Positions 6,584-61,688 of a DNA stretch of 64,000 nucleotides are shown here, in pieces. The notes below the pieces were generated by a model. That model had not been told where the DNA came from. It saw only the letters and a list, made by a program, of their open reading frames with translations, and searched no databases. Positions within the stretch are counted from its first letter, which is position 1. Each line of letters starts with the position of its first letter. The translations under genes were made by a program, and so were the position numbers. The DNA is from a virus. The stretch covers positions 96,001 through 160,000 of IMG/VR virus record IMGVR_UViG_3300037466_003065, one strand, 5' to 3'.

Positions 6584-6584
6584 G

Positions 6585-10678: not shown

Positions 10679-10737
10679 GAAAGCCCGATACTCCCGCAGG
10701 TGCTCCCGCCACTTGGCCAGCGTTTCGGCGGGCGGGA

Positions 10738-11978: not shown

Positions 11979-12043
11979 TCCTGTAATCCTTTGATGGTTA
12001 CTTTTGCCAGTCGGCGTGGTGCTGACCGGCTAATGTCGCTGGG

Positions 12044-12071
12044 ATTATAACGGGCGCGTAATTGGATGCAA
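12044..12071 (-). promoter_or_regulatory. sigma70-type promoter
   Basis: Minus strand TTGCAT-N16-TATAAT in an AT-richer intergenic gap upstream of the Fis-like/dam genes. Confidence 0.55.
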
Positions 12072-12088
12072 GCAGTTAATGCGCGGGG

Positions 12089-12454: not shown

Positions 12455-12467
12455 GGGACTCCTTTCG

Positions 12468-22759: not shown

Positions 22760-22774
22760 ACTGATGCCTCCGTG

Positions 22775-24484: not shown

Positions 24485-24509
24485 TGTGATGTCTCCTGAA
24501 GGTTTGGGG

Positions 24510-25565: not shown

Positions 25566-26167
25566 GATGATGCCTCCTGCTGTTGAAGAAGAATGTCTAG
25601 GGTTCGGATGGCCGCACCGCTGTCCTTGCGGAACACGTACTCGGGCAGTTCGTGCAGCCACCGGATCGTCAGCTTGTTCACCTCCTCTTCGACCTCCTCA
25701 GTCGAGTGTAGTTTGTATGGCACGCCGGCCTTCTGGGAGAGGTGGTGGTGGGCCGTCTCGTGCACCACTGTTGACAGGACGGGCGACGGCCCGCCGAGCT
25801 TGTTCAGGTGCACGATGCTCCGATCCATGCCTCGCCAGTGTGTGCGGGTGCGTCGCCTCATTGAGCCGAAGCAGGCCCAGCCCCGGGCCGACTCCGTCTT
25901 GCGTAACGCCTCCTCGTGCGCGACTTCCGGGAACTGGTCGACGACCGCCTCGCGGTGGTCGGCGTACATTACGACGATCGGCCAGTAGTTCAGCAGTCGT
26001 TTCCGGAAACAAAAGAACCGCACCTCACGGCAGATCTCTTGCCAGTGACGTACGGTTTCTTCTGTGATCCCGAGCCGAAGCACGGAAGCCGAGACGAGGG
26101 AGGCGTGTTCCCGGTCACTTACGAGCGGCAACCTTGCGACCTGTCGTCTTATCATCGGTGTTCTCAA
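25562..26167 (-). CDS. putative zincin metallopeptidase-like protein (HExxH)
   Basis: STVVHETAHH followed by a downstream EE. Confidence 0.55.
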   Translation of the reverse strand: MRTPMIRRQVARLPLVSDREHASLVSASVLRLGITEETVRHWQEICREVRFFCFRKRLLNYWPIVVMYADHREAVVDQFPEVAHEEALRKTESARGWACFGSMRRRTRTHWRGMDRSIVHLNKLGGPSPVLSTVVHETAHHHLSQKAGVPYKLHSTEEVEEEVNKLTIRWLHELPEYVFRKDSGAAIRTLDILLQQQEASS

Positions 26168-26528
26168 ATTCGGGGTCGATCCTCGCGCGGACGATGTTCT
26201 TGGCGGCCTCCAACTCCTCCTCGGCCTCGCGAACGCTGCGGTCGAAGTCTTTGCGGGCTTCGACCTTCTTGGCGAGCTCTCGCTCGGCGTCGGCCAGCTT
26301 GGCCCTCAGCGTGTCGATGTGCACCTCGAGCTTGGGGATGCCGAGGTTGTTGACGTGACGCTCCTTCTTGGCCAGGCGAACCGCCTCCTGTGCGGCGAGC
26401 AGGCCCCGGTCGGTACGCATCAGCTCGGCCAGCCTGGTCTCCCGGGCCTTCGTTCGGGCCTGGTCGAGGGCGGCCTGGGCGGCGAGAACCGACTTGTCCT
26501 GGGTGATGCGAGTCGTGGTGGCGGGCAT
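26115..26528 (-). CDS. coiled-coil hypothetical protein
   Basis: Start MPATTT after AGAGGACATC. Confidence 0.7.
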   Translation of the reverse strand: MPATTTRITQDKSVLAAQAALDQARTKARETRLAELMRTDRGLLAAQEAVRLAKKERHVNNLGIPKLEVHIDTLRAKLADAERELAKKVEARKDFDRSVREAEEELEAAKNIVRARIDPEFENTDDKTTGRKVAARK

Positions 26529-26753
26529 TGATGTCCTCTGCTTTCGTGTCGGATCCCCGTGATGTCCGGGGACTATAAACAAGCGGGTTTCCCTTGACAA
26601 CATTAAATCCCAAAGATTACCGATCGTTTTGTGCCGTATCGCATACCGGTGATCCCCTTCAGATCACAATGGATCCCCTATTTTACTGGTTGCTTTCACC
26701 TATTTTGCGTCACCCTCACAGACCTCACCCCACAGATGAGAGAATGGTGAAGA

Positions 26754-27110
26754 TCAAAGCGACTCCAGCGACTCGGCGACGGTCACCAGGTCGTCGACGC
26801 TGAAGTGGTCGACGCTGGCGTCCGTCGAGCCGCCATCGGCGCACACGACGAAGAGCGTCAGGTGGCCTTGGTTGCTGCAGGTGATCATCTGCAGCTCCGC
26901 GATCGCCGTCGAGTTGTGCTCGTCTTCGTAGGGGTAAGAGGCGGCGATGCCCCTTTCGCAAAGGTCGATCGAGTGGACAGACCCGGCACCGCCGCCCGGC
27001 TGGGGCAGCGGGCCCACGCCCTTCTTGAGCACCAAGTCGCGAAGCAGCTTCACGACCTTTGCCCGTGTTCCCTCGAGCTGGTTTTTAATCTCTGTCAGTT
27101 TCATGCTCAT
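26754..27110 (-). CDS. hypothetical protein
   Basis: Start MSMKLTE after AGGA. Confidence 0.65.
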   Translation of the reverse strand: MSMKLTEIKNQLEGTRAKVVKLLRDLVLKKGVGPLPQPGGGAGSVHSIDLCERGIAASYPYEDEHNSTAIAELQMITCSNQGHLTLFVVCADGGSTDASVDHFSVDDLVTVAESLESL

Positions 27111-27136
27111 GGCGTTTCCTGTTCGTGTAAGAGAAG

Positions 27137-27168
27137 GGGGCCTCCGGGATGTCGTCCCCGGAGGCCCC
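27137..27168 (-). terminator. intrinsic terminator-like hairpin
   Basis: 12-bp stem GGGGCCTCCGGG / CCCGGAGGCCCC followed by CUUCUCUU on minus. Confidence 0.7.
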
Positions 27169-27207
27169 GATGCGTTGGCGGGCCCTTTCCGGCTCACCGT
27201 TGCCCGT

Positions 27208-27546
27208 TTAAGTGGCGCCCCTCTTGATCCGCCCGGTTCGCGGCCCGGTGTCCACGCCGGCCTGAACCGAAACCGCCTTTTGGAAGGCGACCTCGTGGGG
27301 CAGGGTGTACTCGTCGGAGCGGCCCTTGAGGCGGTAGATGACCGCCAGTGGGGTCACCTTGGAGATCTCGATCTCCCGGGTACCCCTTTCGAAGGTGGTA
27401 CAGGCGGTCTGGAACGGGCCGATCGAGCCCTTGATCTTCTTGGCTCTTGCCCGCTTGGGCTTCTCAGCTCCGGCGCCGCACTCGGGGCAAGGCGTGATGA
27501 GTCCCGGGTTGTTGTGCCACGGATGAGGACACGGTTCTTTTGCCAC
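27208..27546 (-). CDS. Zn-finger hypothetical protein
   Basis: CPHPWH...CPECG; GGAGGCATC RBS. Confidence 0.7.
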   Translation of the reverse strand: MAKEPCPHPWHNNPGLITPCPECGAGAEKPKRARAKKIKGSIGPFQTACTTFERGTREIEISKVTPLAVIYRLKGRSDEYTLPHEVAFQKAVSVQAGVDTGPRTGRIKRGAT

Positions 27547-27754
27547 GATGCCTCCGGTTGAAGGGTAGGGACAACTGGTTCGGGTCGGGCTTGGGCGCCC
27601 GCGAGGGGCCGGCCGACCCGTGATTACTGCGAACGATGGTCTCGGTTGCGATGTCCCCCAAAACGATTGCGGCCAGCGGCACCTCGAAGAGTGCCTGCTG
27701 GCCGGGAACGTCGGAGCGGGGTCGCTCGACGGTCACAATCTGTAGCTTCATCAC
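27464..27754 (-). CDS. hypothetical protein
   Basis: AAGGAGGCATC RBS before the GTG; 3' part overlaps the next gene. Confidence 0.5.
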   Translation of the reverse strand: MMKLQIVTVERPRSDVPGQQALFEVPLAAIVLGDIATETIVRSNHGSAGPSRAPKPDPNQLSLPFNRRHRGKRTVSSSVAQQPGTHHALPRVRRRS

Positions 27755-28254
27755 GATGCCTCCTTGGTACGAACCTTGGCCTTGCCGGTCAGAATCAGTG
27801 TCTGCTTGGTTTCAAGGAGCAGTGCCTCCTTTCTTGTCATCTTGGGCCACTTGACGCCTCGCCACCTGGCGTACACGTTGAGCCAGCGGTACTGGTGGTA
27901 GGCGAACTTGTGCCACGGCGTACGCATCAGGTCGAACATTTGCGAGTCGACCGCGTCGGCCGCGTGCTCCGAAAGTCGACTGCCGACGTTCAGGCACTTG
28001 GCCACCTGGGCGGCCTTGTGGGTAATGGCGCCACGCTGGAGCATCGACAGAATATTGGCGAGGTGGGTGTCACTAAGATCCTTGAAGCGGATCCGCTGCT
28101 TATCCTTCGTCACCCAGACCATGTCCTCGACAAAGAACCTGCCGTTACCGGCAAGGCTTCCGTCGCAGGCGCCGCACGGGCCGGCGCCGGGGTCGTGGAT
28201 GTCCATGGCCCCGCTGCCACCGCAGAGCGAGCAGGGATACGTCGGCTTCTTCAT
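27751..28254 (-). CDS. phage protein with DnaJ-like Zn finger
   Basis: CSLCGGSG...CGACDG, then WVTKD..I...DLSDTHLANI. Confidence 0.75.
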   Translation of the reverse strand: MKKPTYPCSLCGGSGAMDIHDPGAGPCGACDGSLAGNGRFFVEDMVWVTKDKQRIRFKDLSDTHLANILSMLQRGAITHKAAQVAKCLNVGSRLSEHAADAVDSQMFDLMRTPWHKFAYHQYRWLNVYARWRGVKWPKMTRKEALLLETKQTLILTGKAKVRTKEAS

Positions 28255-28330
28255 GTGATGCCTCCCAAAAGGAGTGGGGCCGGGAACGTGGTTGGGTTCA
28301 CGTTCCCGGCCCCGGGCTAAGAAACACTCG

Positions 28331-28903
28331 CTACTGGTGCATGTTCATGAGCCGGAACCGGCTCTCGAACCCGTGCACCCGCATGATAACCGCGGGGAGC
28401 TGGGTGTCCAACTCCCATTCGAAGCCCGCCGTGTTCGTCTCCTGGCCGAGCACGAACTGGGTCGAGTGGTGGATCCACCGGTAAATCGAGTGCCACCCGG
28501 TCGGGCACAGGATTTTCAGGTGCCGCATCTCCCCATGCCAGTGGTCGCGGAGCTGGGCGACGCAGTCGTCGAGGCTGACGACCTCCTTGGGGATGTACTC
28601 GTCGCCCGCGTCGGTCAGCGTGTCGATCGCGGTCAGGGCCTCCAGACCCGAGTCGAGCGGCACGGCACGGCCGAGGAACAGGGGCATGAACTGCACCGGG
28701 AAGCCGCCGCCCGACTTGAAGAGCTCGTCGACCTGGTCGGGGGTGATCTTGTCCGGGTTCTTGGGGATGTACTGGATCAGGCCCCGCGGCACCAGCTTGG
28801 CCGGCGAGATCTGGAGGCCGTTCATCCGCTCGTACGCCCATAGGTGGCCGGGCAGGGCGGCCTGCACGACCCGGTACTTCTCGATCAGTTGGTCATTCGT
28901 CAT
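28331..28903 (-). CDS. hypothetical protein
   Basis: Start reassigned to MTNDQL, overlapping the upstream stop. Confidence 0.65.
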   Translation of the reverse strand: MTNDQLIEKYRVVQAALPGHLWAYERMNGLQISPAKLVPRGLIQYIPKNPDKITPDQVDELFKSGGGFPVQFMPLFLGRAVPLDSGLEALTAIDTLTDAGDEYIPKEVVSLDDCVAQLRDHWHGEMRHLKILCPTGWHSIYRWIHHSTQFVLGQETNTAGFEWELDTQLPAVIMRVHGFESRFRLMNMHQ

Positions 28904-29846
28904 CGTCGTCATCCTCGAAGTCAAAGTCATCATCGTCGTCCCAAGAGTCGTCGGACTCGGAGTCGGGCAGGGCCCCAGCTTCCTCGTCGAACTCTTCGAG
29001 GCTGTCGCCGAACGACCACTCCTTGGGCTCGGGCCCCTTGGTAAAGCCCTTCTCGGCGACGAGCCATGCGGCGAACTTGCACGCGCGGTCGACGCGACTG
29101 GTGAACATCGCGCTGCCCGGCCCCCTGAGCCACTCGAGATTGAGCTCGCGGAGGTCGACGTTCTCCGGGCCGTACAGCAGGTCGACCTGGACGCGGTCGC
29201 CATCCTCGCCGTCGTCGATCGCGTAAAGCGTGGAGTTGGCCGGCGGCTTTGGCGGCGTGTACCGGAGCAGTTTCCAGTGCGGCCCCGGCTGCTCCTGCAG
29301 CTTCCACGGCTTGGCGGGGCGGCCGGCGGCGAGCCACGCGTTGACCTCGATCTGGACGGCGTTCAGGATCGTGCACGCGTCATCGAGGCCGACCCACTCG
29401 ATCAGTTTCTCGGCGCCACCGAGCACGTTGGCGTCCACAAAGTCGTGGAGCTGGGAGAACGAGGCGACGTGCGGCGGCACGACCTGCTTCTCGATCAGGG
29501 CGAGAATCTCGTACTTGGTGTCGATGACCAACCGCGACTTTCGGAAGCAGAAGATCGCCTCGGCCACGTCGTCGGTCGCCAGGATGTTGCCCTCCTGGGA
29601 CTTGTACCCGGTGAAGCTGACGTGGTACCGGGGCGTCGGCGACATCTCACGGAGCTCGGGGTTCGGATGGTCGCTCCAGAGGCGGAGGCAGACGTCCTCG
29701 CCGAGGTGGGTGCAGCCCACGCCGAAGCTGGGGCAGACGTCGTTGTGCCAGCTCATGTCGTCGACGCCGTCCAGCTTCGGGTCAGTCAGTTTGAGGATCT
29801 CGGGCGGCGGGGCCCACTCCCCGCTGAACTCGCTCGCGTAACTCAT
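28893..29846 (-). CDS. multi-domain hypothetical protein with acidic tail
   Basis: SWHNDVCPSF motif, SFSQLHDFVDAN motif, D/E tail; AGGAGACATC RBS. Confidence 0.75.
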   Translation of the reverse strand: MSYASEFSGEWAPPPEILKLTDPKLDGVDDMSWHNDVCPSFGVGCTHLGEDVCLRLWSDHPNPELREMSPTPRYHVSFTGYKSQEGNILATDDVAEAIFCFRKSRLVIDTKYEILALIEKQVVPPHVASFSQLHDFVDANVLGGAEKLIEWVGLDDACTILNAVQIEVNAWLAAGRPAKPWKLQEQPGPHWKLLRYTPPKPPANSTLYAIDDGEDGDRVQVDLLYGPENVDLRELNLEWLRGPGSAMFTSRVDRACKFAAWLVAEKGFTKGPEPKEWSFGDSLEEFDEEAGALPDSESDDSWDDDDDFDFEDDDDDE

Positions 29847-30182
29847 GATGTCTCCTGAAAGGGAAGATGGCCTCGTGGTGGGGTCACCACAAGGCCATCG
29901 TGATTAGAACCGTCAACCAGAAAATCCGCCAGCCGTCGCTCAGACTCCCTCGGGGATTACGCCCCACACGGGCACCCTCCTCTCATGGTGAGCCTCCACA
30001 CATTCCAGGAACTCGCCGATCACCTTTCCGTTCCGGCTGATCGTGCAACAGACCCATGCCGCGTTCATCTGCTCGCGATGCAGTTGGTACATGATGCCTC
30101 CTGAAGGGGTGAGGGGATTGAACCATTCTTCGGCTTGAAGTCAATGGGATTACATGGGGAATTTCCGGAACATGACCCGGTG

Positions 30183-32607: not shown

Positions 32608-34140
32608 TCAGGCCGGCGTGGTCGCCGGCACGCGGTGGTCGATGCGGTTGCGGACGTTGAACAGCGGGTACACGGAGCGGGCGACGTCGAGGATCTGTTG
32701 CTCCTCGACCTCAGTGCGGACGTTGTAGGAGCCGACCGGCATCTCGCCGTCGTAGACGTCGAAGTGGATCGGGAACAGGTCGGACACCTCGGGCCGGTAG
32801 TCGGGATCGACGAACTTCTTGCGGTCACCCTCCGGCAGTAGGTCGGCCTGCTGCAGGCGGGTCATGCTCTCGACGACCATCTCGGCCTGCTGGCGGCTCC
32901 GGCCCTCGCCCTGCATGATGTTCTCGATCGCCCGCTGCCGCAGCTCGTACCGCTGCTGCGTCGTCAGGTGGTCGAGGTCGTGCGGGTTGACGAAGGTGGT
33001 GCCCTCGTCGACGATCTCGCGGCCGTGCTCGTCCCGCTTGTGGATGTGCGTGCCGACGATGTACCGCGGGTAGTCGCCGGCGCCGCCCTTGAGGTTGCCG
33101 ATGAACTCCATGGCGAGCTCGCCCTTGGCGAACCCGCGACAGGTGATCACGTCGTACGCCTCGTGCTCGACCACCTGCCGGTCGATGGTCTCGTGCGACT
33201 CGTACGGCAGTTGGGCGTCGACGCCGTCCCGGATGCTCTCGGTGATCTTGCCCCGCAGGAACACGTCGACGTCGAAGCTCATCGGCTGCGGCCGATCCTC
33301 ACGATCGATCTTGGCGTCGAGGCCGTGGGTCGGCACGGACACCTTGGGCTTCGGGGTGTCGCGGACGATCCCGGGCACCGGCAGGATCGGCTTGCCCGGG
33401 CCGAGGGCCTCGTAGACCGGCCAGGTCATCTCGGTCTTCTGATCCCACTCGGCGATCACGGTGTACCGGTCGACCCGGCACTTCGTGGTCTCCTCGCGGG
33501 GCACACTGACGACGTCGCGGGGGTTGACCTTGACGATCACGTACTTGTCGCTGCCGTCGCCGAACCACCGGGCGTAGCTCGAGGAGCCGACGTGGAAGCC
33601 CTGCGAGCAGTCGGTGCCCCAGTCGTCGTCGACCATGCTGCGGGGCATCACGGGCGTCTCGCCGATCCGGTTGCTGACCGTGCCGGTTCGCTTGTCCGTC
33701 CAGTCCTCCTTGACGGCCTTGTACCCGAGCCAGTGGCCGTCCGTCGTGATCGGAATGTCCTGGTTCTCCAGCCAGGAGTAGAGCTCGTCGAGGGCCCGCC
33801 GGCTGGGGTTCTGGACGAGGTTGTCGAGGAACGCGACGAAGGGCTGGAACGGCATGCCCTTGGCCTTGGCGTCGAGGATGCGCCGGGTCAGCGAGTTGTT
33901 GAGGACGTGGGAGCCGTAGTACACCTGGTTCCCGACGATCTTGATGGCGCCCTGCGAGTATTCGTGTACCGCGGTGGGGACGTCGATGGCGGCGGCGAAC
34001 TTCTGGCCGTTGTCCTCGTCGATCGCTTCACGGGCCTCGCTGTACCCGGGATGGTCGGGCGTCACGTTGTGGGCCTTGCCGGCGAAGCTGGCCGCGATGT
34101 TCTTGCTGCCCGTGATGATCCAGTTAAACAACTTGCTCAT
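32608..34140 (-). CDS. rIIB: rIIB-like protein with C-terminal extension
   Basis: FLDNLVQNPSRRA..ELYSWL....PIT.DGH.LGYKAV...MPRSMVDDD....CSQGFHVG....VKVNPRDVVSVP; follows rIIA; start MSKLFN. Confidence 0.9.
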   Translation of the reverse strand: MSKLFNWIITGSKNIAASFAGKAHNVTPDHPGYSEAREAIDEDNGQKFAAAIDVPTAVHEYSQGAIKIVGNQVYYGSHVLNNSLTRRILDAKAKGMPFQPFVAFLDNLVQNPSRRALDELYSWLENQDIPITTDGHWLGYKAVKEDWTDKRTGTVSNRIGETPVMPRSMVDDDWGTDCSQGFHVGSSSYARWFGDGSDKYVIVKVNPRDVVSVPREETTKCRVDRYTVIAEWDQKTEMTWPVYEALGPGKPILPVPGIVRDTPKPKVSVPTHGLDAKIDREDRPQPMSFDVDVFLRGKITESIRDGVDAQLPYESHETIDRQVVEHEAYDVITCRGFAKGELAMEFIGNLKGGAGDYPRYIVGTHIHKRDEHGREIVDEGTTFVNPHDLDHLTTQQRYELRQRAIENIMQGEGRSRQQAEMVVESMTRLQQADLLPEGDRKKFVDPDYRPEVSDLFPIHFDVYDGEMPVGSYNVRTEVEEQQILDVARSVYPLFNVRNRIDHRVPATTPA

Positions 34141-34151
34141 TTGTGATGCTC

Positions 34152-35135
34152 CTACTTGAAGAAATGGTCGTACGTGAGCGGAGTGTAATCGAATCCGTTG
34201 GTCTTGTTGTTGTAGAACCTCGCCCACGCGTGCCCGCACGCCGTGCAGCAGCGGTAGAACGCGTCGTGGGACTCGTCCAGTACGTCGTACGATCCGCACT
34301 CCGGGCAGATGCACGAGGTCTTGAACAGCTCCTGGTACAACTCCTCTCTCCACGCCTGTGCGCCACAGATGCAGTTGCGGCAGTCGGCGTGGGTGCAACT
34401 GCCCAGTTTCTTGTTGTTCTTGCGGACGTGCTCCGACCAGGCCATCGAGTCGGAGGAGGCGAAGTACCGCCAGATCTGGAGGAGGCCGGTCTTCTTGAAG
34501 CCGAAGCCGTGCATCCGCAGGCCGTAACGGTGGAGCTCGGCGATCGTGGGCTCCATCACGCCGGTACCCTGCCGCCGGCACACGCTGCCGACGCCGACGA
34601 CGCCGCACTCGCGGAGATCCACGCCGTAGTTGGCGTACATCTCGACGTGCCGCCAGTAGTCGTCGGGCTCCCAGCCCTGCAGGACGGGGGCCCACCAGAT
34701 CTCGGGGGCCATGTCCCGCAGGCCGAGGTAGCTCAGGATGGTTCGTCGCTGGTGCTCGGCGACGGAGAGGCCGGTTCCCTTGAAGGTCACACCCTTGAAC
34801 GTGCCGCCGTTGATGACCATCGGCTCGCACATCCAGTCCTGGCACGCGACCCAGTCGAGGTTCCCGATCATGTTTCGCCACCGCCGCACCTCGTCGACGA
34901 ACTGACGGGGCCCGATCGTCCACTGGCCGTGCTGCTGCAGCTCCGAGAAGCCGCCGCTGTCCATCGCCCAGCTCGCGATTGCGGGCTTGACCTTCTTCTG
35001 GCGGATCAATCGGTTCCTGCTGACGAAGAGGGGGAAGCCGGCCCGGCTGAGCCACGCCGGCTCGGGGGCGCCGACGTAGAGTCGGAACTCCAGCTTGGCG
35101 GCGGTGTCCATCCCGGTCGTCAGCACCCCGGTCAC
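34152..35135 (-). CDS. dpdA: DpdA-like (tRNA-guanine transglycosylase fold) deazaguanine DNA-insertion enzyme
   Basis: AMDSGGFSEL, ACQDWMCEP, HQRRT, PVLQGW, VGVGSVCRRQ, HGFGFK, SSDSMAWS, Cys-rich tail. Confidence 0.75.
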   Translation of the reverse strand: MTGVLTTGMDTAAKLEFRLYVGAPEPAWLSRAGFPLFVSRNRLIRQKKVKPAIASWAMDSGGFSELQQHGQWTIGPRQFVDEVRRWRNMIGNLDWVACQDWMCEPMVINGGTFKGVTFKGTGLSVAEHQRRTILSYLGLRDMAPEIWWAPVLQGWEPDDYWRHVEMYANYGVDLRECGVVGVGSVCRRQGTGVMEPTIAELHRYGLRMHGFGFKKTGLLQIWRYFASSDSMAWSEHVRKNNKKLGSCTHADCRNCICGAQAWREELYQELFKTSCICPECGSYDVLDESHDAFYRCCTACGHAWARFYNNKTNGFDYTPLTYDHFFK

Positions 35136-35503
35136 GTGGGCCTCCCCTCGGTGCCGGCCAGCACGTACTCGTTTCCCTCGTCCTCGACGGCGTCGCCGAG
35201 GGCCAGGAGGACGCCGAACTCGACGGCCACCGTGTAGCTGATCTTGCGGTGCGGAATCCGGTTGCCGGCGCAGAGGATGTCGAACGTCTTCTCGGTCATC
35301 TTGCGGGTGACCCGGACGATCGAGCCGGTCTCGTACCGCATCAGGGTGAGGCCCTTATCGTCGACCTCCTTCACGACGTAAGTGCCCTCCTTGACCCGCT
35401 TGCCGATCAGCTTCTGGAGTCGCTTCTGGGCGTCCTCCCATTTGAAGTCGGGTTCCTTCATTTCTGCTCCCGGGCGAACCTTGTCGCCAGTTCGAGCTTC
35501 CAC
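35132..35503 (-). CDS. hypothetical protein (start may be MKEPDF)
   Basis: ORF track; contiguous with neighbours. Confidence 0.65.
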   Translation of the reverse strand: MEARTGDKVRPGAEMKEPDFKWEDAQKRLQKLIGKRVKEGTYVVKEVDDKGLTLMRYETGSIVRVTRKMTEKTFDILCAGNRIPHRKISYTVAVEFGVLLALGDAVEDEGNEYVLAGTEGRPT

Positions 35504-35664
35504 GTCTTGTCGTTGGGGTCGTCGACCCTGAAGCGGAACTGCTTCAGGATCTGGCCGCCCTTGCGTACCTGCACGCTGCCGGTCTTATTGTGTCCCTTTC
35601 CGGCCTTGCCCCCGCTGGTGGGGATGTGCAGCTCGCAGCCGTTCACGGTCGTGAAGAGCATCAT
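35458..35664 (-). CDS. small basic hypothetical protein
   Basis: Start MMLFTT after AAGGAGG. Confidence 0.7.
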   Translation of the reverse strand: MMLFTTVNGCELHIPTSGGKAGKGHNKTGSVQVRKGGQILKQFRFRVDDPNDKTWKLELATRFAREQK

Positions 35665-35897
35665 TCCTCCTTTCGGAGGTCGGGTGCGTACAGGGCCAGG
35701 TCGACGCCCTGCTGCATGCCGACGTAGTTGATGAACATGGTCACGATGGCGTCGACCTGGTTGTCGGCCATCGCGTCGATAGCGGCCTGGCCCAGCTCGT
35801 GCATGTGCCGGCCGTCCCGCAGGTGCTGCTCCCACCGCTTCACGAAGTGCTGGCCGTTCTTGACCAGCATCTGCATCAGCTCACCCTTGCTCAGCAT
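35661..35897 (-). CDS. small hypothetical protein
   Basis: Start MLSKGE after AAGGAGG. Confidence 0.7.
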   Translation of the reverse strand: MLSKGELMQMLVKNGQHFVKRWEQHLRDGRHMHELGQAAIDAMADNQVDAIVTMFINYVGMQQGVDLALYAPDLRKEE

Positions 35898-36387
35898 GGC
35901 GTTCCTCCTTGCGGAGCCTCTTGATGTCGGCGGCCGGCGTGTAGCGGCGGGGAGTCCCGCCGGCCTTGAGGTGCTCCCACTCGGCCTCGGCGCGTTCGAG
36001 CAGCTCATCGACCTTGGCCGGCGGCAAATCCATCGACTCGCAAATCGAGTCGAAGTCCTCGGACTGGATGCCGCGAGCCCGGATCTCGGCGAGCAGTCGC
36101 GGAAACTGGACGAAGTTGTCGTCGAAGGCCGCACGCTCGGGCTCTTTCGGTCGCTCGATAGGCGTCAGCTCGAACGGCTTGTCCGGGTCGACGCCGGCCA
36201 CCTTGAGGTTCTTCCGGCAGTTCTTGTCGATGACCTCCTTGATAAGGAAGGAGTATTCGAACGCCCCGCCCGTGGTGTAGTAGAAGCACGATTGGTTGCG
36301 GTGTCGCAGGAAGCCGAGGATCGTGTATTCGGCCCCGGACGTCAGCCGCACCTTGTACCCACGACGCAGTCGCATCTTGTCGGCCAT
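35881..36387 (-). CDS. hypothetical protein
   Basis: QF.RLLAEI...CESMDL....VDELLERA..EWE motif; AGGAGG RBS. Confidence 0.75.
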   Translation of the reverse strand: MADKMRLRRGYKVRLTSGAEYTILGFLRHRNQSCFYYTTGGAFEYSFLIKEVIDKNCRKNLKVAGVDPDKPFELTPIERPKEPERAAFDDNFVQFPRLLAEIRARGIQSEDFDSICESMDLPPAKVDELLERAEAEWEHLKAGGTPRRYTPAADIKRLRKEERHAEQG

Positions 36388-36395
36388 GACGCCTC

Positions 36396-36716
36396 CTACT
36401 CCTGGTAAGGGGTGATGAACAGAATGTACTTGCGGCCGGGCAGCTCCTTGAACTCGACGCAGCGGCCGGCGCCGCCCACGATCTCGAGGGCCTGGTCGAA
36501 GTAGTCGTCCTTGTCCCGGCGGTTGGCCCTCACCTGCTCCCCGGTTCGTTCGTCGCGTTCGGCCTCGACGGCCTCGACGTGGTGGTCGACGCCCAAGATC
36601 GTGGCCGCCCCGAGGAGGCGGTGGGCCTTGTCCCGCCCCCGCCCGACCGCACGCATGGGCGTGGTCAGGTTGAGGCCGTCGATCTCGTGCACGATTTCTT
36701 CGCGGTCTTTAGGCAT
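36396..36716 (-). CDS. hypothetical protein
   Basis: 106 aa; AAGGAGA RBS. Confidence 0.7.
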   Translation of the reverse strand: MPKDREEIVHEIDGLNLTTPMRAVGRGRDKAHRLLGAATILGVDHHVEAVEAERDERTGEQVRANRRDKDDYFDQALEIVGGAGRCVEFKELPGRKYILFITPYQE

Positions 36717-37122
36717 AACGGATCTCCTTGAAGAGTGTCCACTGGATCAGATTGTCGATGTCGCCGTAGTCGACGCCGGGCGGCGTGTCCCGCCAGTCGA
36801 CGCCCCACTTCCGGCAGCCGATCACGAAGGCGTCCTCGGCAAACGCCTGGTTGAGCACCCAGTAGTGCTCGGGCACCGACAGGCCGGCCTTGAACCGCTC
36901 GGTGGCCGCCGAGTGATCCATCGCCACGTAGTCGATGCTCTCGTCGTGGCCGAACTCGTACGCGAGCCAGCCGACGTCGTCGCGGTACTCGACGCCGTAG
37001 AGCCAATAGCCGGCGCAGCCGGGCCGCTCGAAGATGAAGGTGTCCTTCGCGATCAGGTCGCGGACGAACTCCAGCTTTGCCTGCTGAACCTCCTCGTCGG
37101 TGGGGAGCCATTTGTCAGACAT
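36709..37122 (-). CDS. hypothetical protein
   Basis: 137 aa; ends D.DNLIQWTLFKEIRYA. Confidence 0.75.
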   Translation of the reverse strand: MSDKWLPTDEEVQQAKLEFVRDLIAKDTFIFERPGCAGYWLYGVEYRDDVGWLAYEFGHDESIDYVAMDHSAATERFKAGLSVPEHYWVLNQAFAEDAFVIGCRKWGVDWRDTPPGVDYGDIDNLIQWTLFKEIRYA

Positions 37123-37504
37123 CGAGACCTCCGATCTTGTCTTGCCACGCGTCGACCAGGTCGACGACGGTCTTGTCGTCGGTCACGTGGTCGTTGGCGT
37201 AAACGGTGTCGTACTTAGAGATGAACTCGATAATCTTCTTGGCGTCGCGCAGGGCCTCCTCACGGGCGACCTCGCCTGTGCAGACGCAGTACCAGCCGTC
37301 CGACACCTGATCGATCGCGTCGCCCACCTTGCATGTCTGGGCCCAACGGGCGATCCGGGCCTCGACCTCCTTGGTGATCACCTTGGACATCGTGGGGATG
37401 CCCATGTTGAGCATGTGGTCGCCGAACTGGATCGTGATCAGGCCCAGGTTCTCGCCGTCGCAGCCGGCGATCACGAGGGTGAACGTCTTCTTAGCCATTG
37501 GCAT
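37115..37504 (-). CDS. hypothetical protein
   Basis: 129 aa; overlaps neighbours by a few bases. Confidence 0.7.
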   Translation of the reverse strand: MPMAKKTFTLVIAGCDGENLGLITIQFGDHMLNMGIPTMSKVITKEVEARIARWAQTCKVGDAIDQVSDGWYCVCTGEVAREEALRDAKKIIEFISKYDTVYANDHVTDDKTVVDLVDAWQDKIGGLDV

Positions 37505-37709
37505 TGTTCTTCTCCGCTTCGAGGACGGCGTCGCGGAGCTTGAGGGACTCGTCCGCGAAGCCTTTCATCCCCTTGTCTGAGGTAGGTGGGAATCCGCCGC
37601 ACGCCGCGAGCCGGCCGGCCACGACCTGACCGAGCAGGTACTGGCTCCAGCTCATGCCGGGGGCCGAAAGTAGTTCGCTGGGGAACGCACATTCGTTTGG
37701 TTGTGTCAT
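37491..37709 (-). CDS. small conserved phage protein (AFP...GM..L type)
   Basis: CAFP....GMSWSQYLLGQVVAG...A......DAVL pattern. Confidence 0.7.
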   Translation of the reverse strand: MTQPNECAFPSELLSAPGMSWSQYLLGQVVAGRLAACGGFPPTSDKGMKGFADESLKLRDAVLEAEKNNANG

Positions 37710-37716
37710 GGTGCTC

Positions 37717-38073
37717 CTACCAGTTGAAGGTGGGTAATTCCTTGTACGTGGGCCCGTCGCGGTCGAGGGCCACGAACTTGCAGTCGTTCTCCTGGGCGAT
37801 CGTTAAGAGCTGGATGAACGCCGCGCTGTACCCCCGCCGCTTCGCCTTCTGAAGGATGTCGGCACGCATGTCCTTGTCGCTGGGGGCGGCGTAGACGAAG
37901 AAGCCCTCACGGAACTCGTACACGGTGAGGTCGTCACCCTGGGCGGAGGTGGGGCCCGCGTCGTCGGGCCAATGGGCGACCGCGTCGTGCTGCAGCTTCT
38001 CCATGTCGCCCATGGTTATGTGGCCGGTGCCGCAGTCGAACAGCTTCTCGGTGTGGATCTTGAGATTGGACAC
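37717..38073 (-). CDS. DUF5983-like protein
   Basis: DCGTGHIT...FIQLLTIAQENDCKFVALDRDGP...LPTFNW; GTG start after AAGGAG. Confidence 0.65.
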   Translation of the reverse strand: MSNLKIHTEKLFDCGTGHITMGDMEKLQHDAVAHWPDDAGPTSAQGDDLTVYEFREGFFVYAAPSDKDMRADILQKAKRRGYSAAFIQLLTIAQENDCKFVALDRDGPTYKELPTFNW

Positions 38074-38417
38074 AGCGACTCCTTGATGTGTTGGATGTAC
38101 CGGTCTTTGCGGCGAATAGTGCCGCGGGCCGCAGGATGAACGATGGGGATGAAGTCGATCCGTCGCTTGGCAAGGGCATCCTGCACCCTCTTGCCCATGG
38201 CGACGACCGGCACGCGTGAGCCTCGGATCGACTTCAGGATCGTGTGGTTGACCCGGTCGCCCACGAAAAGGTTGGCGAAGATCTGGAGCTGGGGGTCGAG
38301 GCCGCAGGCCGTCAGGGCGTCGAAGAGCTGCTTCGCCGCCAGCCTGCCGTCCTGCCACCTGACCCGCATCCGCACCGCCTTCGCCGACCGCTTTTCACCG
38401 ACGAAGAGGTAGATCAT
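38016..38417 (-). CDS. hypothetical protein, possible uracil-DNA-glycosylase-like fold
   Basis: FVGE, VVAMG..V..AL, IVHPAAR; weak motif-based call. Confidence 0.45.
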   Translation of the reverse strand: MIYLFVGEKRSAKAVRMRVRWQDGRLAAKQLFDALTACGLDPQLQIFANLFVGDRVNHTILKSIRGSRVPVVAMGKRVQDALAKRRIDFIPIVHPAARGTIRRKDRYIQHIKESLCPISRSTPRSCSTAAPAT

Positions 38418-38746
38418 CCCTTGTTCTCCGGGGCGTCGGGGTCGGGGTCGATCGCGTTGTGCCGCCGCAGGTCTTCGTGGTCGGCGGCCTCCTCGTCATC
38501 CCTGCTCTCGCCCTCGGCCTCCGCCTCGCCGTCGACCAATGACACCGTGACGAAGATCGCCTTGTCGACCCGATCGTGGATGTTGCCCGGCGTCGTGGGT
38601 CGCTTGAGGGCGACGTCGTCCAGGCGGACGAACACGTTGTTGATCACGTCGTCGCCGTACGCGATGCTGATGGGGATCTCCTGATCCGGCTTCATCCCCT
38701 TGATCATCTTCCGGATCTCGCTGACCTTGATAGTTCCGCGTCCCAT
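38414..38746 (-). CDS. hypothetical protein
   Basis: 110 aa; AAGGAG RBS. Confidence 0.7.
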   Translation of the reverse strand: MGRGTIKVSEIRKMIKGMKPDQEIPISIAYGDDVINNVFVRLDDVALKRPTTPGNIHDRVDKAIFVTVSLVDGEAEAEGESRDDEEAADHEDLRRHNAIDPDPDAPENKG

Positions 38747-40643: not shown

Positions 40644-41957
40644 CTAGGCCGCCGCGGCCTGTTTCCGCCGGCAGCCCGTGATCGCTGAGAGCACGTGCCG
40701 GAACATCTGGATGTCGATGCCCTGCCCAAGCACCTCGCCGGCGTTCGTCTTCGTCGGGCCGAGGTCGTAGTCGTCGGGCAGGCCCATCAACCGCCGGCCC
40801 TCGGTCAGCGTGAGCCACCGCCAGGTGTTGGCCTGCGTCGGGTGGGCGACCACGAAGTTGTCACCCTGCCCGGCGTAGTACCGCTTCTTGAGCGTCGGGA
40901 TCTGCGTGTCGGCGGCCGTGATCGCCGGCGCCGCGAACCCGTTGCCCTTGGCCGACTGCCTCGCCCAGTGCTGTGGTGCCCAGTGGTCGAGGCCGAACCA
41001 GAGCGGGCTGTCGTCGGGGATGCGCTCGAGGATTGACGCGGCCGTCAGCTTCTGGGTCACGGTCTCGGGCCACCGCACCTCGTCGAACGTGGTGGCGATG
41101 ATGATCGCACGCCGGCGGGCCTGCAGGGAGCCGTAGTCGAGGGCGTTGAGGACGCGACTGTCCACCGTGTACCCCATCGCCCGGAGCACGCCCTGCACCA
41201 TGTACCCGCTGCCCGCGTCGAGGTATCCGGGGACGTTCTCGATCACGACGGTGTGCGGGTTCAGGACGTCGACGGCCTGCAGTACGTAGAAGTCCAGGTG
41301 GCCCAGCTCGTGGGCCTCCGGGGGGAGGCTCTTGTCCCGCTTCTGCTGGCCGCCGCGGTCGAGTCGCCGGATGTTGCTGTACGGCTCGCAGGGGCGGCCG
41401 GCGGTCAGGAGGCCCACGGGCTGGTCGATGCGGGCGGCCATCTTCTGGAAGTCGACCTCCTCGATCGGCTGCTCGTGCATGTTCCCCGCGTGGTTCCGCT
41501 CCCAGATCTCGGCGTACGCCGGCTCGACCTCGACGGCCGCCACGGTCTGGAAGCCCTCGGCGTGGGCCGCCTCGTCCAGCAGGCCGCCGCCGGCGAACAG
41601 GCTGACGGCGATCGCGGTGAGCACGCGGGCCGCCTTCTTGACCAGCGTCTTGGCCTTGGTGATGACGATCTCGCCCTTCCTGGCCTCGCAGAGCAGGGGC
41701 GTGCCCAGCTTCTCGCCGAAGACGGCGCCGAGCTTGTCGCCGGTGATGTCGATTACGGCGGCCTCGCCCTTGCCGCTGATCTTGCGGTCGCCCTCGGTGT
41801 TCGCGCGGATGATGATCTTGTCCTTCTCGAAGATGACGGTGATCTTGCCGGCCGGGGAGAACCCGGCTTCGACGAGCCAGCGGCCCTGCAGGTAGACCCG
41901 GGGCTTCTCCTTGTTCAGGCCCAGCTTGATGTTCGCGCTACGGAGTTTCTCGCTCAT
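40644..41957 (-). CDS. dcm: DNA (cytosine-5)-methyltransferase with N-terminal SymE/AbrB-like domain
   Basis: SLFAGGG (motif I), AGRPCEPYS (IV), IENVPG (VI), LQARRR (VIII), RWLTLTEGRRLMGLP (IX), VLGQGI (X). N-terminus has VYLQGRWLVEAGF. Confidence 0.92.
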   Translation of the reverse strand: MSEKLRSANIKLGLNKEKPRVYLQGRWLVEAGFSPAGKITVIFEKDKIIIRANTEGDRKISGKGEAAVIDITGDKLGAVFGEKLGTPLLCEARKGEIVITKAKTLVKKAARVLTAIAVSLFAGGGLLDEAAHAEGFQTVAAVEVEPAYAEIWERNHAGNMHEQPIEEVDFQKMAARIDQPVGLLTAGRPCEPYSNIRRLDRGGQQKRDKSLPPEAHELGHLDFYVLQAVDVLNPHTVVIENVPGYLDAGSGYMVQGVLRAMGYTVDSRVLNALDYGSLQARRRAIIIATTFDEVRWPETVTQKLTAASILERIPDDSPLWFGLDHWAPQHWARQSAKGNGFAAPAITAADTQIPTLKKRYYAGQGDNFVVAHPTQANTWRWLTLTEGRRLMGLPDDYDLGPTKTNAGEVLGQGIDIQMFRHVLSAITGCRRKQAAAA

Positions 41958-57419: not shown

Positions 57420-57953
57420 TTACCTGACGGGCTTGACGACGCGGCTGTTGTGCTGTTCGAACTCCCGAACCTTGTAGGCCGAGTTGGGGTAGAGCCGCAG
57501 GAAGTTGCGACGCTTGGCCTCGTAGCTTTCCTCGACGTTCACGCCCACCCTGTTCTGGAGGATCAGGATGTGGATGCGGTTCAGCTCACGGAGCTTCATC
57601 GCCTCGTGCTGGAAGTCTCTGGCCCGCCCCTTGGCGATCGGTTTGTAGAAGCAGGGATTCTGCTTCGGAGGCTTGGGGCTGCGAGGGCCCTTGCAGCCCG
57701 GCGTCCGCGGCCCGTGGTGCCACGGCGTGGCCTTCAACATCCGCGGCGTGATGCTGACGGTGGACTTGATGCCCAGGCCCACCGGCCCGCCGGCCATGTG
57801 GGGCTTGAGCACGCCGATGTACTCGACCCGGCGCCGGGCACTGGCCTGGGACATGCTCAGGCCGTGCACCTTCGGAGACGGGACGGGGAGCACGCGGCAC
57901 TTCGGGTGGGGCGTGCGGGAGTCGTACACTTTCTCTTTCATGGCATCACCCAA
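57420..57953 (-). CDS. basic hypothetical protein
   Basis: 177 aa, Arg/Lys/Pro-rich. Confidence 0.55.
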   Translation of the reverse strand: MGDAMKEKVYDSRTPHPKCRVLPVPSPKVHGLSMSQASARRRVEYIGVLKPHMAGGPVGLGIKSTVSITPRMLKATPWHHGPRTPGCKGPRSPKPPKQNPCFYKPIAKGRARDFQHEAMKLRELNRIHILILQNRVGVNVEESYEAKRRNFLRLYPNSAYKVREFEQHNSRVVKPVR

Positions 57954-58347: not shown

Positions 58348-58375
58348 AAGACCTCCTGTGTTGGAGACGAAAGAA

Positions 58376-58400
58376 GCCGGCGGGTTTGCGGCCCGCCGGC
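58376..58400 (-). terminator. intrinsic terminator
   Basis: 9-bp stem GCCGGCGGG / CCCGCCGGC followed by UUCUUU on minus. Confidence 0.75.
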
Positions 58401-59694
58401 CCCGGTGTACACGATGCTGTCCCGTAGGTCGCTCCAGTTCCCTGTTGCCAGGAGGATTGCGTTATCACCTCATCGTGTCGCTCCCCGGGCATTGCCGGGG
58501 CTGTTGCCTCAGACCCTCCGCGGTCTCCAGTGCGGAGGTGGTCTGTGTCGTCCTACCGTCTCACCCATTGGGCAACGAGAGCTGGGGGCAGGATCGTGGA
58601 CAATGCCACGTCCAACCCAGCCCGCCCCTGCTCCACGGTGTGTTGTGGGCCTGGGCATCTCTGGGAGTACGGCGAAGCGAGCCACCACTGCACGCCGGTC
58701 GGCGTTCTCGACGGGATCTGTGCCTCTGCTACGATCGATCAGTCACGCCCCCATGCGATGGGTCTTTAGCCCTTGCGGCTGGGCATCGGTCACGATCGTG
58801 GCAGGCAAACAGCACGCCCGTCACCCACGCGGCTTGCTAGGCCGAACGGGCGAACGGAGACGACTGCATGCAGCTCATGCTCGCTTCTGTGCTTTCGCTA
58901 GTGCGGCTTTACGCCCGCGTTGCTCCCTTCGGACTCCGCGATACCTTCCGCTGTCGTCCCAGCTCGGGGCTGGTTCTGCGACAGACCACGATCCTTCAAC
59001 GTGCTCGCCTAGCGGGGCCAGGGGCCTGGCCACAAGCCAGACCGCCGCAAGTGGCGTTCCTGCTTTAAATCACGCATCGGCACAAGACCGAAGGTAGGGA
59101 ACGCCCCAAGGCATCAACTCACACTGGGGATCGTGGTCAACGGTACGTCACGCGGCGTCCTCTGGACGCGTCAGAACCGCGGGCGTCGTCACGACGTGCC
59201 GCGGGCCGTTTCAAACCACACTACTACTCACCAAGGTATTCAGAGTCATGTCCCATTCGGGCAGTCCCAACCACACAGTCGGAACATCCGTTTGGGGCTC
59301 GTTTATCACCTTGCCCTTTTGCACCGCGTTACCGGTGCGTTTTAAGGTCGTTTCTTGAGGGTAACGACCCTGAGCAACTTTACACCACCGGAACTATCCC
59401 GCATCCACCGGCCATGAACCCCCGAAGGGGCGGATGGGCGGCTTCCGCTGATAGCCCGCTATGGGCCACCGACCCGGCTCGCCTTGCGAGCTTTGCGAGG
59501 TTGGCTTCCGCCATTCAAGAACCCACCTAGTGGGCGTGCTGTCCGATTCTCAGCACCCGCTGAACGTGGTTCCCGACGAATCGGGGCGACGTTGAGCAGT
59601 CGACCATTGGGGCCGACGCTTGCACCGCAGTCTCTACCGCGTGCAAGGCATCACCTTTGGCCAGTGGCTACCACCGGCCGCAGGGTTTGATTAG
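58401..59694 (-). ncRNA. candidate large structured non-coding RNA (3' portion), unassigned class
   Basis: No credible ORF over ~1.3 kb. More than 15 hairpins, UUCG loops on minus at ~59420 and ~59575, GAAA/GCAA/GUAA loops, and an 11-bp long-range stem (58984-58994 with 59128-59138). Ends at a terminator. Confidence 0.55.
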
Positions 59695-60559
59695 GACAAG
59701 CGAATAGGCACTGTGAGACCCCCGAGCTGGACACTACAAACGACCCCCTTCACTCACGACTACTCCCGAACCACGACCCGGCAGAACTGCGCGGCCGTTT
59801 CCGACCGGTTCAGCAGAACCTGCTCGAAGGCCAAGTCGACGGGCTTGGTTGCCCCGTCGATGGTCTTGACCGACCCGCCGGACAGCGCCCGCACCGCGTT
59901 CATCGCGGCCGGCACGCGGCCCCACGCCCGGTTGACCCACTCCTGCGCCTTCATGAAGTGCTTCGCCACCTCCTCTTTCTTTGCGGCGACCCACTTCTCC
60001 ACCAGCGCCGCATCCTGCGGCTTGACCTCGACGGTGCCGATCTTGCCACCGTCCTTACGGGCGAGCGCCTCGGCGTCAATCGCCTTGAGGCGAGCGTCGC
60101 GGTGCGCCTCAAGTGCGGCCAAGACCTCCACGGTGGGGATCTTGGCGAGGAACCCTTGCGTCACGGTGCGAGCCTTCATGGGCTTGCCACCGTTGCGAGC
60201 CTTGCAGCACGCCTTCACGGCCGACCCGAGCATCGGGCCGGCGCCCGTCCCCTTGTCGAAGATCCCGAAGATCAGGGCATACGCCGCGGCGCTGGTGCGC
60301 TTGCGGAGTTCGCCCATGTCGGCCTTGCGGAGGTCTTGGAGGTTCTGGGCCGTCGCATCGAGAACGAGAACATCCTCGTGCGAGAAGCCCAGCGCCTCAT
60401 CAATCGCCGCTGCCGCCTTCGAGACCGAACGAGAAGAAACTTTCGTGTCCTTAGCCATTGTCAACTCCCGCCGGAACCTGTCCGGCATGTTAGAGACCAA
60501 CAAACAGAACGATAGAACCAGAACCAGCTAAGGGGTCTCACAGTACCTATTCACTTGTC
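59695..60559. repeat. 28-bp inverted repeat pair flanking the ORF at 59760..60458
   Basis: 59695-59722 GACAAGCGAATAGGCACTGTGAGACCCC vs the reverse complement of 60532-60559, GACAAGTGAATAGGTACTGTGAGACCCC; 26/28 identical. Confidence 0.95.
59760..60458 (-). CDS. Ala/Lys-rich helical hypothetical protein nested in the inverted repeat
   Basis: Start MAKDTK after GGGAG; typical codon usage; no recognised family motif. Confidence 0.8.
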   Translation of the reverse strand: MAKDTKVSSRSVSKAAAAIDEALGFSHEDVLVLDATAQNLQDLRKADMGELRKRTSAAAYALIFGIFDKGTGAGPMLGSAVKACCKARNGGKPMKARTVTQGFLAKIPTVEVLAALEAHRDARLKAIDAEALARKDGGKIGTVEVKPQDAALVEKWVAAKKEEVAKHFMKAQEWVNRAWGRVPAAMNAVRALSGGSVKTIDGATKPVDLAFEQVLLNRSETAAQFCRVVVRE

Positions 60560-60830
60560 AAAGAACATGCCTGCGCACGCTCTAGTCGACGGTCGCTCTT
60601 TGCGTAGGGTATGGGCTTATCCCAATGGGGCACCTAGGCACGTACATCGCCTAGGGGTTCTACCCACGTTGACCGCTTGACGTCTCACGACGTAGGCGGG
60701 GTTCGGTGCGGCTGCCGCACCGTCAACGGGCATCGCGTTTTGTCCACCTAGACCCACGACACGCGGCGAACCGCGTAACGTGAGCGGGGGTTTCTCCCAC
60801 GCGACCCACACGAACACGACCGAAGATTTC
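60560..60830 (-). ncRNA. hairpin-rich non-coding segment (candidate 5' portion of the structured RNA)
   Basis: Stems CCTAGGC/GCCTAGG, GGTGCGGC/GCCGCACC and ACGCGG-UUCG-CCGCGT (minus), plus a GAAA-type loop near 60790. Confidence 0.45.
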
Positions 60831-61213
60831 AAAGAGCAACATCACGAGGCACCAGTTAGACGACTGCGGCGAATCCGGCAGAGGTGCGCGGGGTGGGGGG
60901 CTTTGGGATCGGGCGACCTGGTCGGCCTGGCCGACCTATATGGGCAGGCTTTCACATAAGGGTCAGGCCAAACTCAAAATGGGCGGGGGCCTCTCCCAAT
61001 CACATCTGCGAACATGGATCAGATCGAAGGGCGGGCTCGAAAATTAGGCGGGGGCCAGAGTCACATGACCATGACACAGGGGGCGGGGGTGGTCTGAGCT
61101 GGATCGAAAGGGGCGGGGGCGAGATGGGGTCGGTTCAAAATTTTACGGGGGAAGGGTCGAAATAATCAGGGGCATGTTCGGGTTTCTGTTGTTCCACTCA
61201 CAATTAGTTCTAC

Positions 61214-61606
61214 GTGGAACACGAGCTCATCCTTATGTTCCACAGGGGAACATCCGATGTCGGGGGCATGGATTTCAACACGGGCTACATCATGGGGCTG
61301 GTCGTTGGCGGGGGCTGCTTCACGATCCACCAGAACAAGAAGAGTGGGCAGGTCACACCGACGTTCAGCCTGAAGCTGCACGAGCGGGACTACCAGCCAC
61401 TACTCGACCTGCAGAAGCTGTTGGGAGGGACGATCTACGGGCCCTACAACCACCAGAAGCGGAAGTATCGGGCGCTCTTCGTGCGAGGGGCTGATCTGGC
61501 GAAGGCGATCCCTGTGTTCGACAACTACCTGCCGAAGAGCCACAAGAGGGATCAGTTCTCGGCTTGGTTGGAGCACGAACGGGTCAGGGTGCTGTGGCAG
61601 AAATGA
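61214..61606 (+). CDS. single-motif LAGLIDADG-fold protein, catalytic acidic residue missing
   Basis: GYIMGLVVGGGCF, then F.L.L...D...L..L...LGG.IY...R.....L...I.P.FD.YL..S.K..QF..W. Likely start is the ATG at 61268. Confidence 0.8.
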   Translation: MEHELILMFHRGTSDVGGMDFNTGYIMGLVVGGGCFTIHQNKKSGQVTPTFSLKLHERDYQPLLDLQKLLGGTIYGPYNHQKRKYRALFVRGADLAKAIPVFDNYLPKSHKRDQFSAWLEHERVRVLWQK

Positions 61607-61607: not shown

Positions 61608-61688
61608 GGCCCAGAGGAGGGAGTCGAACCCTCGGTGCGTGTCAAGCACTAGCCGCTGCGTCCGTGCCGTTGGTAGACTTCACTGGGC
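61608..61688 (-). tRNA. tRNA-like element with degenerate anticodon arm (loop centred on CUA)
   Basis: Acceptor GCCCAGTG/CTCTGGGC (one mismatch), D-arm GTCT/GGAC with GG, canonical T-arm GAGGG-TTCGACT-CCCTC. The anticodon stem is bulged, U33 is absent and CCA is not encoded. Confidence 0.5.

Follow-up and report, generated by a model that had tools for sequence, protein, structure and literature searches.

The 36-nt inverted repeat at 59695–59730 and 60524–60559 is likely to be the leader–trailer helix of a phage transcription unit modelled on a host rRNA operon. It lies in a window of 64,000 nucleotides, which comprises bases 96001–160000 of a 184,787-bp IMG/VR virus record with about 64% G+C, and all coordinates below refer to this window unless stated otherwise. 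From the sequences compared, the phage appears to have copied both the helix and the adjoining BoxA from a host rRNA operon. It probably uses the host rRNA transcription and processing machinery for one early mRNA and a structured RNA of 1.3 kb, which is proposed because all of the cis elements are present and most of the unit is untranslated. The element would work like a pre-rRNA leader–trailer helix without being a member of that family, because its payload, for which no rRNA model match was obtained, is a coding gene for a protein of 232 aa and not rRNA.

Genomic setting and architecture of the unit

In a crude gene map based on GC3, a leftward gene block extends over roughly 90.8–154.3 kb of the record and encodes an NAD-dependent DNA ligase, a PAPS-reductase-like protein, an AAA ATPase, and a C5 methylase, and a rightward block that includes the large terminase runs from near 159.4 kb. 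The inverted-repeat unit sits where the two blocks diverge, and the leftward block opens with the 232-aa gene. The C5 cytosine DNA methylase encoded at 40644–41957 on the minus strand possesses an N-terminal SymE-toxin-like domain (AbrB/SpoVT-type), and the rightward block contains, outside the window, three very large ORFs of 3991, 2773, and 1613 aa (G000 1128–13103, 21739–30060, and 33790–38631, respectively).

The unit is read on the minus strand, and it begins with a BoxA-like element (BoxA1, GCTCTTTGAAA, 60827–60837) that matches GYTCTTTRANA exactly and is invariant in L004, L005, and L006, the three metagenome contigs that carry the closest relatives of the 232-aa protein. The leader domain between the BoxA elements (60567–60826) is variable in sequence and is predicted to adopt a closed fold; in the minimum-free-energy (MFE) folds of single sequences from all four loci, the BoxA1-proximal sequence pairs with sequence located 30–45 nt upstream of the second BoxA, and an 18-nt inverted repeat begins at BoxA1 in L006. 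A small hairpin (60563–60582), which lies directly 5′ of the second BoxA-like element and overlaps it in a boxB-like position, is predicted at the same site in four of four loci with differing stem sequences, as judged from single-sequence folds only. The second element itself (BoxA2, GTTCTTTGACA, 60556–60566) also matches GYTCTTTRANA, and the leader strand of the helix (60524–60559) begins inside it, so that the last bases of BoxA2 form the first pairs of the helix.

Next in the transcript are the 5′ UTR of the enclosed gene (60459–60523), the GGGAG Shine–Dalgarno sequence of which is conserved in L004, and the gene itself (59760–60458), which starts with ATG behind this GGGAG. The trailer strand of the helix (59695–59730) begins 29 nt past the stop codon, and the corresponding distance is 14–29 nt in all four loci. 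It is followed by the conserved, structured, and covarying non-coding RNA of about 1.3 kb (58404–59694), the best-conserved distal domain of which (58672–58889, 83% column identity) was used for covariance model R1. The unit is closed by an intrinsic terminator (58373–58403) with a 12-bp stem, including 10 G–C pairs, and a subsequent T tract; this stem covaries in L004 and L006, and a covarying terminator at the end of the unit supports the rRNA-operon model.

GC3 periodicity is strong in 59760–60458 and was detected neither in the 3′ flank (58350–59730) nor in the 5′ flank (60460–61200). The claim in the first-pass annotation that exactly one ORF of 232 aa occupies the loop is therefore borne out, since this ORF is a real gene and the only one there. 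The accompanying claim that both flanks are structured and non-coding stands for coding capacity on either side and for the 3′ flank, which shows strong covariation; the 5′ flank is conserved, with an invariant core and a variable part, and its closed-domain fold in each locus is predicted from single sequences only.

Further elements were observed upstream of BoxA1. Six or seven copies of GCCCCCG-N(2-6)-TTTYGA (minus strand), some of them spaced by 65 nt, occupy 60974–61180; similar arrays are found in L005 and L006, and the motif is nearly absent from the remaining genome. The array could be an operator, an iteron, or a promoter-proximal array. A single-domain LAGLIDADG endonuclease (Pfam PF00961, E 1e-11) is encoded at 61214–61606, shortly upstream of the unit and on the other strand (plus); it is probably a free-standing homing-endonuclease insertion because a counterpart is seemingly absent from L005 and L006. 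A tRNA-like element with a canonical T-arm is located at 61609–61688 on the same strand as the unit; it gave no ARAGORN call, and its sole Rfam match was weak (tRNA-Sec, E 0.81). Its position upstream of BoxA1 recalls the tRNAs co-transcribed in rRNA operons.

A long helix that acts in RNA

The arms of 28 nt with 26 complementary positions that had been described earlier are real and form part of the 36-nt arms, which were found in a repeat search to be 89% complementary with 793 nt between them. The observation that both differences within these 28 bp are U·G pairs on the minus strand, and would be C·A on the plus strand, is likewise correct. Over its full length and in register, the helix of the minus strand consists of 32 Watson–Crick pairs, three U·G wobbles, and one U·C mismatch. 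Across the 64-kb window, the repeat is the top-scoring inverted repeat within 1.5 kb, with a score of 24 versus 12–16 in 30 composition-preserving shuffles, and both the MFE and the centroid fold of the 891-nt stretch are closed by the 36-bp helix (z = −6.2).

The same bracketing helix occurs in L004, L005, and L006. It is long-range and exceeds 17 bp in each of the four loci (33–38 bp), and it covaries: at helix positions 13–24, 11 of the 12 positions have changed on both sides between loci with pairing kept, a count drawn from the few sequences of these four loci. Its outer 12 bp, including a U·G wobble, are constant in all of them. Among the 145 pair cells of the helix on the sense strand, 127 are Watson–Crick pairs, 14 are G·U, one is A·C, and three are other mismatches. 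This bias of 14 G·U to one A·C on the mRNA strand indicates that the helix acts in RNA and not in DNA, since inverted repeats acting in DNA would lack a strand bias.

The strand bias bears directly on the proposal that the arms are DNA elements, either terminal inverted repeats belonging to a gene cassette or small mobile element, or the sites of an invertible segment. A single gene between 36-bp inverted repeats would suit such an element, and the arms of mobile elements also co-evolve. However, in addition to the bias, the inverted-repeat element is present as a single copy in the genome and lacks a target-site duplication, no transposase or recombinase was matched in Pfam or PHROGs, and the four loci, with protein identities of only 46–65%, agree in the place and neighbours of the element. 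A transposon, cassette, or invertible segment was rejected on these grounds as very improbable.

BoxA elements and kinship with rRNA leaders

The BoxA consensus of gamma-proteobacteria is GYTCTTTAANA (PMC5725501). With either purine allowed at position 8 (GYTCTTTRANA), the 184.8-kb genome contains exactly two matches, against 0.13 expected per window, and both lie in the leader on the sense strand. L004 and L006 carry the motif at the corresponding two sites, and the loci of distant protein homologs lack it altogether. The sites are thus consensus matches on the transcribed strand, as expected of an rrn-type BoxA. The phage BoxA carries G instead of A at position 8 of the E. coli consensus, as do the rRNA leaders that contain the 18-mer described below.

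The resemblance extends beyond the motif. In L004 and L006, BoxA2 reads TGCTCTTTGACAA and is identical at 12 of 13 positions to the E. coli rrsH BoxA, TGCTCTTTAACAA; in the rrsH leader, the sequence of which was read directly, the leader strand of the 16S helix follows 2–3 nt after TGCTCTTTAACAA. The invariant sequence at the helix base is TGCTCTTTGACAAG in L004 and L006 and TGTTCTTTGACAAG in the window, and a second invariant BoxA copy, TGCTCTTTGAAAT, is located 270 nt upstream of the helix base. An 18-mer consisting of the end of BoxA and the first 12 nt of the helix, YTCTTTGACAAGTGAATA, was scanned against one genome per prokaryote species and occurs in at least 120 bacterial genome stretches, which among the matches listed belong mostly to Phycisphaerae/Tepidisphaerales (Planctomycetota) and Alphaproteobacteria. 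Of the 120 matches listed, about 38 precede a same-strand 16S or 23S gene by 120–500 nt.

Perfect pairing encloses the 16S gene in L279 (Phycisphaerae) and L289 (Tepidisphaeraceae), where the 17 nt that follow BoxA have their complement about 2.0–2.1 kb downstream, and the same 16S-enclosing 17-bp helix follows BoxA in four metagenome contigs; a lenient helix search in the genome loci returned mostly noise, and the cases relied on here are the perfect helices of 17 bp. This pre-16S leader strand of L279, L289, and the four contigs begins with the same 13 nt as the phage helix, and the identity between L279 and the phage locus L006 spans 28 nt. The constancy of the outer 12 bp, in a helix whose middle covaries, is explained by the fact that the start of the helix shares the letters of a genuine pre-16S helix beside the same BoxA. 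Because the leader matches the rRNA leaders of Phycisphaerae, the host is suggested to be Phycisphaerae-like, with an alphaproteobacterium as the less likely option.

These matches also weigh on a simpler account, which has a small but real chance of being correct: the helix may mainly stabilise the early mRNA or control its translation, with the BoxA-like motifs recruiting no Nus factors and RNase III uninvolved. End-to-end pairing is known to protect or silence mRNAs, as in the hok mRNA. The helix leaves the ribosome-binding site free, and its short, consistent distance from the stop codon in the four loci would fit a role of this kind. On the other hand, stabilisation or translational control leaves unexplained why the base of the helix and the adjoining 11–13 nt correspond letter for letter to rRNA leaders and why BoxA occurs twice in the leader and nowhere else in the genome, and a near-perfect duplex of 33–38 bp is unlikely to escape RNase III.

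The enclosed protein and its distant relatives

The description of the 232-aa protein as basic and helical was confirmed by a pI of 9.6 and by a confidently all-helical AF2 model (pLDDT 82.8). No Pfam or PHROGs family was matched, in agreement with the earlier statement that nuclease and reverse transcriptase motifs are missing. The structure comparison suggested in the first-pass annotation yielded, in Foldseek searches against the PDB and BFVD and in wide VIA-align searches, generic helical matches only, with Z below 6; the ESM Atlas gave only unnamed phage clusters. The protein has few relatives, the three closest of which, at 46–65% identity, are encoded on the metagenome contigs L004, L005, and L006. 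No relatives were obtained from a DNA search of phages or from protein and profile searches of viral contigs, and 16-mer scans, which sampled BoxA sites instead, brought none of the protein or of the 1.3-kb RNA.

More distant protein homologs are encoded in L246, L247, L248, L251, and L252, and all five lack the bracketing helix, BoxA, and the 1.3-kb RNA, so that part of the family occurs without the arms and without this RNA. In L247 and L248, the next syntenic gene, a homolog of the window gene 57420–57953, comes 117–179 nt after it. RNAduplex runs on the flanks of the distant homologs gave no discrimination between loci, and a 28-nt repeat of 71% at the L252 gene was rejected as a bracketing helix, since many chance pairs of that locus are at least as good. 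Non-coding stretches of 0.8–1.0 kb that are about 70% alike lie downstream of the homologs in L251 (980–1808) and L252 (3273–4296), and a long non-coding stretch lies upstream of the homolog in L248 (1–668); in none of the three was a resemblance to the 1.3-kb RNA detected. The helix, BoxA, and the 1.3-kb RNA are found together in the same four loci and, on this distribution of sequences, are taken to have been acquired jointly, in one sub-clade, around a gene that already existed, because the distant protein homologs lack all three.

The 1.3-kb structured RNA

The 3′ flank measures 1.33–1.39 kb in the window, L004, and L006, and contains near-identical blocks. In its proximal 550 nt, which were compared in four sequences, 49 of 98 predicted pairs are compensatory versus 7–13 in slid-partner controls, and 90.9% of the cells are paired versus 35–47% in the slid controls. 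Three sequences were compared over the distal part, in which compensatory changes affect 59 of 193 pairs; this part includes a 215-nt domain with 83% column identity. Covariance model R1 matches only the window, L004, and L006, and was absent from the distant protein-homolog loci and from 100 viral loci. A 34-nt degenerate pattern derived from the RNA had no match in viral or genome contigs, and no Rfam family, including GOLLD and ROOL, was matched in any locus (gathering score; E up to 10). The 1.3-kb RNA is an unclassified large RNA. An 82-aa gene call inside the conserved structured RNA of L006 (3253–3501) is probably false.

The first-pass annotation had read the whole arrangement as an intron- or HEARO-like RNA that carries the gene of its own partner protein. 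In its broad form, this means that one giant structured RNA made of the 5′ and 3′ flanks encodes its own basic, helical partner in a peripheral stem and forms a ribonucleoprotein with it. The covarying 1.3-kb RNA in the 3′ flank, the basic and helical character of the protein, and the joint presence of helix, BoxA, and RNA in the same four loci are compatible with such a particle. Against it, nothing convincing was found when the 5′ and 3′ flanks were searched for conserved pairs other than those of the helix, no intron or HEARO model was matched, the protein shows no nucleic-acid-binding fold, and its homologs exist without the helix and without the 1.3-kb RNA. A HEARO- or IscB-type RNA with a cognate nuclease was rejected since no Rfam match was obtained and the protein belongs to no Pfam or PHROG family. 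The identity of the helix base and BoxA with the BoxA and leader–trailer helix of bacterial rRNA operons also speaks against this earlier reading, and a self-encoded ribonucleoprotein is considered quite unlikely.

The narrower possibility that the flanks represent the two halves of an intron, self-splicing or permuted, which would excise or circularise the enclosed gene, is extremely improbable. The placement of an ORF in the loop of a long stem, with a structured flank on either side, does resemble intron architecture; however, no group I or group II model was matched on the sense strand (E up to 10 in the window and up to 1 in the related loci), the sole match being a weak domain V on the wrong strand. 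Moreover, there are no flanking exons and no split gene, and the neighbouring gene is equipped with a start and a ribosome-binding site of its own.

Proposed mechanism

Transcription of rRNA operons relies on a complex that withstands Rho and is assembled when BoxA recruits NusB/NusE together with the other Nus factors. BoxA remains on the polymerase, the growing rRNA is looped out, the leader strand is kept available for the trailer, and the helix is subsequently cleaved by RNase III (PMC10250234, PMC4807359). In the rrnTAC looping model, a leader–trailer helix of more than 17 bp is needed, and the RNase III site overlaps this helix (PMC10250234); long-range duplexes in mRNA are also cut by RNase III (PMC11780869). 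By analogy, host NusB/NusE and other Nus factors may bind BoxA on the nascent phage RNA and establish an rrn-type antitermination complex, which would resist Rho on the roughly 2.5-kb transcript. Such resistance would matter because most of this transcript is untranslated. With BoxA tethered to the polymerase, the leader strand would be held near the RNA exit channel, ready for the trailer, and could pair with it as soon as the trailer is made. The 232-aa gene would thereby be looped out in the manner of 16S rRNA. Host RNase III could then cut the near-perfect duplex and free the mRNA from the leader and the 1.3-kb RNA, and the cleaved mRNA would keep paired, protected ends.

The Nus-factor binding and the RNase III specificity of the host are assumed in this scheme. 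A search of the phage genome found no RNase III, T7-like RNA polymerase, or RtcB. Several observations count against the rRNA-operon model. An inner CCCCUU box of the helix is conserved, for which the model offers no explanation; a sigma-70 scan found no promoter on the sense strand of the unit; the phage helix, at 33–38 bp versus 17–23 bp in the matching bacterial loci, is twice the host length; and BoxA has the G at position 8. In the literature searched, no precedent is described for an mRNA as the payload of such a helix.

A bolder extension, which is rather doubtful, would make the 1.3-kb RNA the real product of a "pseudo-rRNA operon". Transcribed by the hijacked rrn antitermination complex, this RNA would assemble with the 232-aa protein, released by RNase III, into a new ribonucleoprotein acting early in infection, for example as a decoy for the ribosome-assembly or RNA-processing factors of a planctomycete host.

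Occurrence in other phages and significance

Among 118 viral-contig stretches sampled by a 16-mer, 49 carry the full BoxA context, where about 4 would be expected, and none of them adjoins an rRNA gene. In at least eight of the sampled stretches, a helix of 15–32 bp starts at the same GACAAG and encloses 300–1000 nt. IMG/VR contigs with 31–51% G+C in which a BoxA-plus-GACAAGTGAATA start precedes a 15–32-bp bracketing helix are L021, L040, L068, L072, L103, L110, L116, and L119, and the first four carry two motif copies each, about 360 nt apart. Because the BoxA-plus-helix start is present in 49 other sampled viral contigs, the strategy may, on sequence grounds, be widespread in phages.

Antitermination at BoxA and leader–trailer helices are textbook features of rRNA synthesis, and BoxA is also present in lambdoid phages. 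Here, a phage would have taken over the entire rRNA packaging signal in order to express a protein gene together with a structured RNA of kilobase size; no published description of such rRNA-style BoxA-plus-helix packaging of phage genes was found, within an incomplete coverage of the literature. If the rRNA-operon model is true, phages of poorly studied hosts, such as Planctomycetota and Alphaproteobacteria, would have a simple route to long, Rho-resistant, untranslated transcripts that are cut into defined pieces by host enzymes. The leader sequence furthermore provides a clue to the host, and the 1.3-kb RNA is marked out, as a large new phage RNA, for work on its structure and function.

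Comparison with known systems

The unit resembles intron-encoded and HEARO-type ORFs in that a long stem next to structured RNA closes the loop that holds an ORF. In contrast to these, it possesses no catalytic core, split gene, or nuclease or reverse transcriptase motif, and its protein family also occurs without the RNA. As at the nut sites of lambda, a phage BoxA on a nascent early transcript is proposed to recruit host Nus factors. However, lambda nut/N antitermination uses the order BoxA then boxB and needs the phage protein N, whereas the predicted order here is that of rrn, a bracketing helix is present in the phage unit, and no N-like protein was identified in the phage. RNase III sites of T7 early mRNA are local hairpins between genes; the duplex of the present phage, unlike these, encloses a whole gene and is coupled to BoxA. 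It nevertheless resembles both the T7 sites and the long-range duplexes of bacterial mRNAs (PMC11780869) as a long duplex in a polycistronic early transcript, as a likely target of host RNase III, and in the structured mRNA ends. The 1.3-kb RNA is, like GOLLD and ROOL (10.1101/2024.12.08.627333), large, phage-borne, and heavily base-paired, but it is about twice as long, has no Rfam match, and is transcribed behind BoxA elements.

The counterpart on which the unit is probably modelled is the bacterial rRNA leader, with its boxB–BoxA–boxC antitermination site and the 16S/23S leader–trailer helix, as exemplified by E. coli rrn (PMC10250234, PMC4807359, PMC5725501). The phage unit differs from it in that the payload of the helix is a protein-coding mRNA and in that the 1.3-kb RNA follows outside the helix. 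In both, BoxA abuts the 5′ strand of a long helix that closes beyond the payload, a second BoxA is located further upstream, and the transcript is long, structured, and mostly untranslated. The order of hairpin, BoxA, and helix, with the hairpin of the phage being a predicted one, is likewise that of rrn leaders (PMC10250234).
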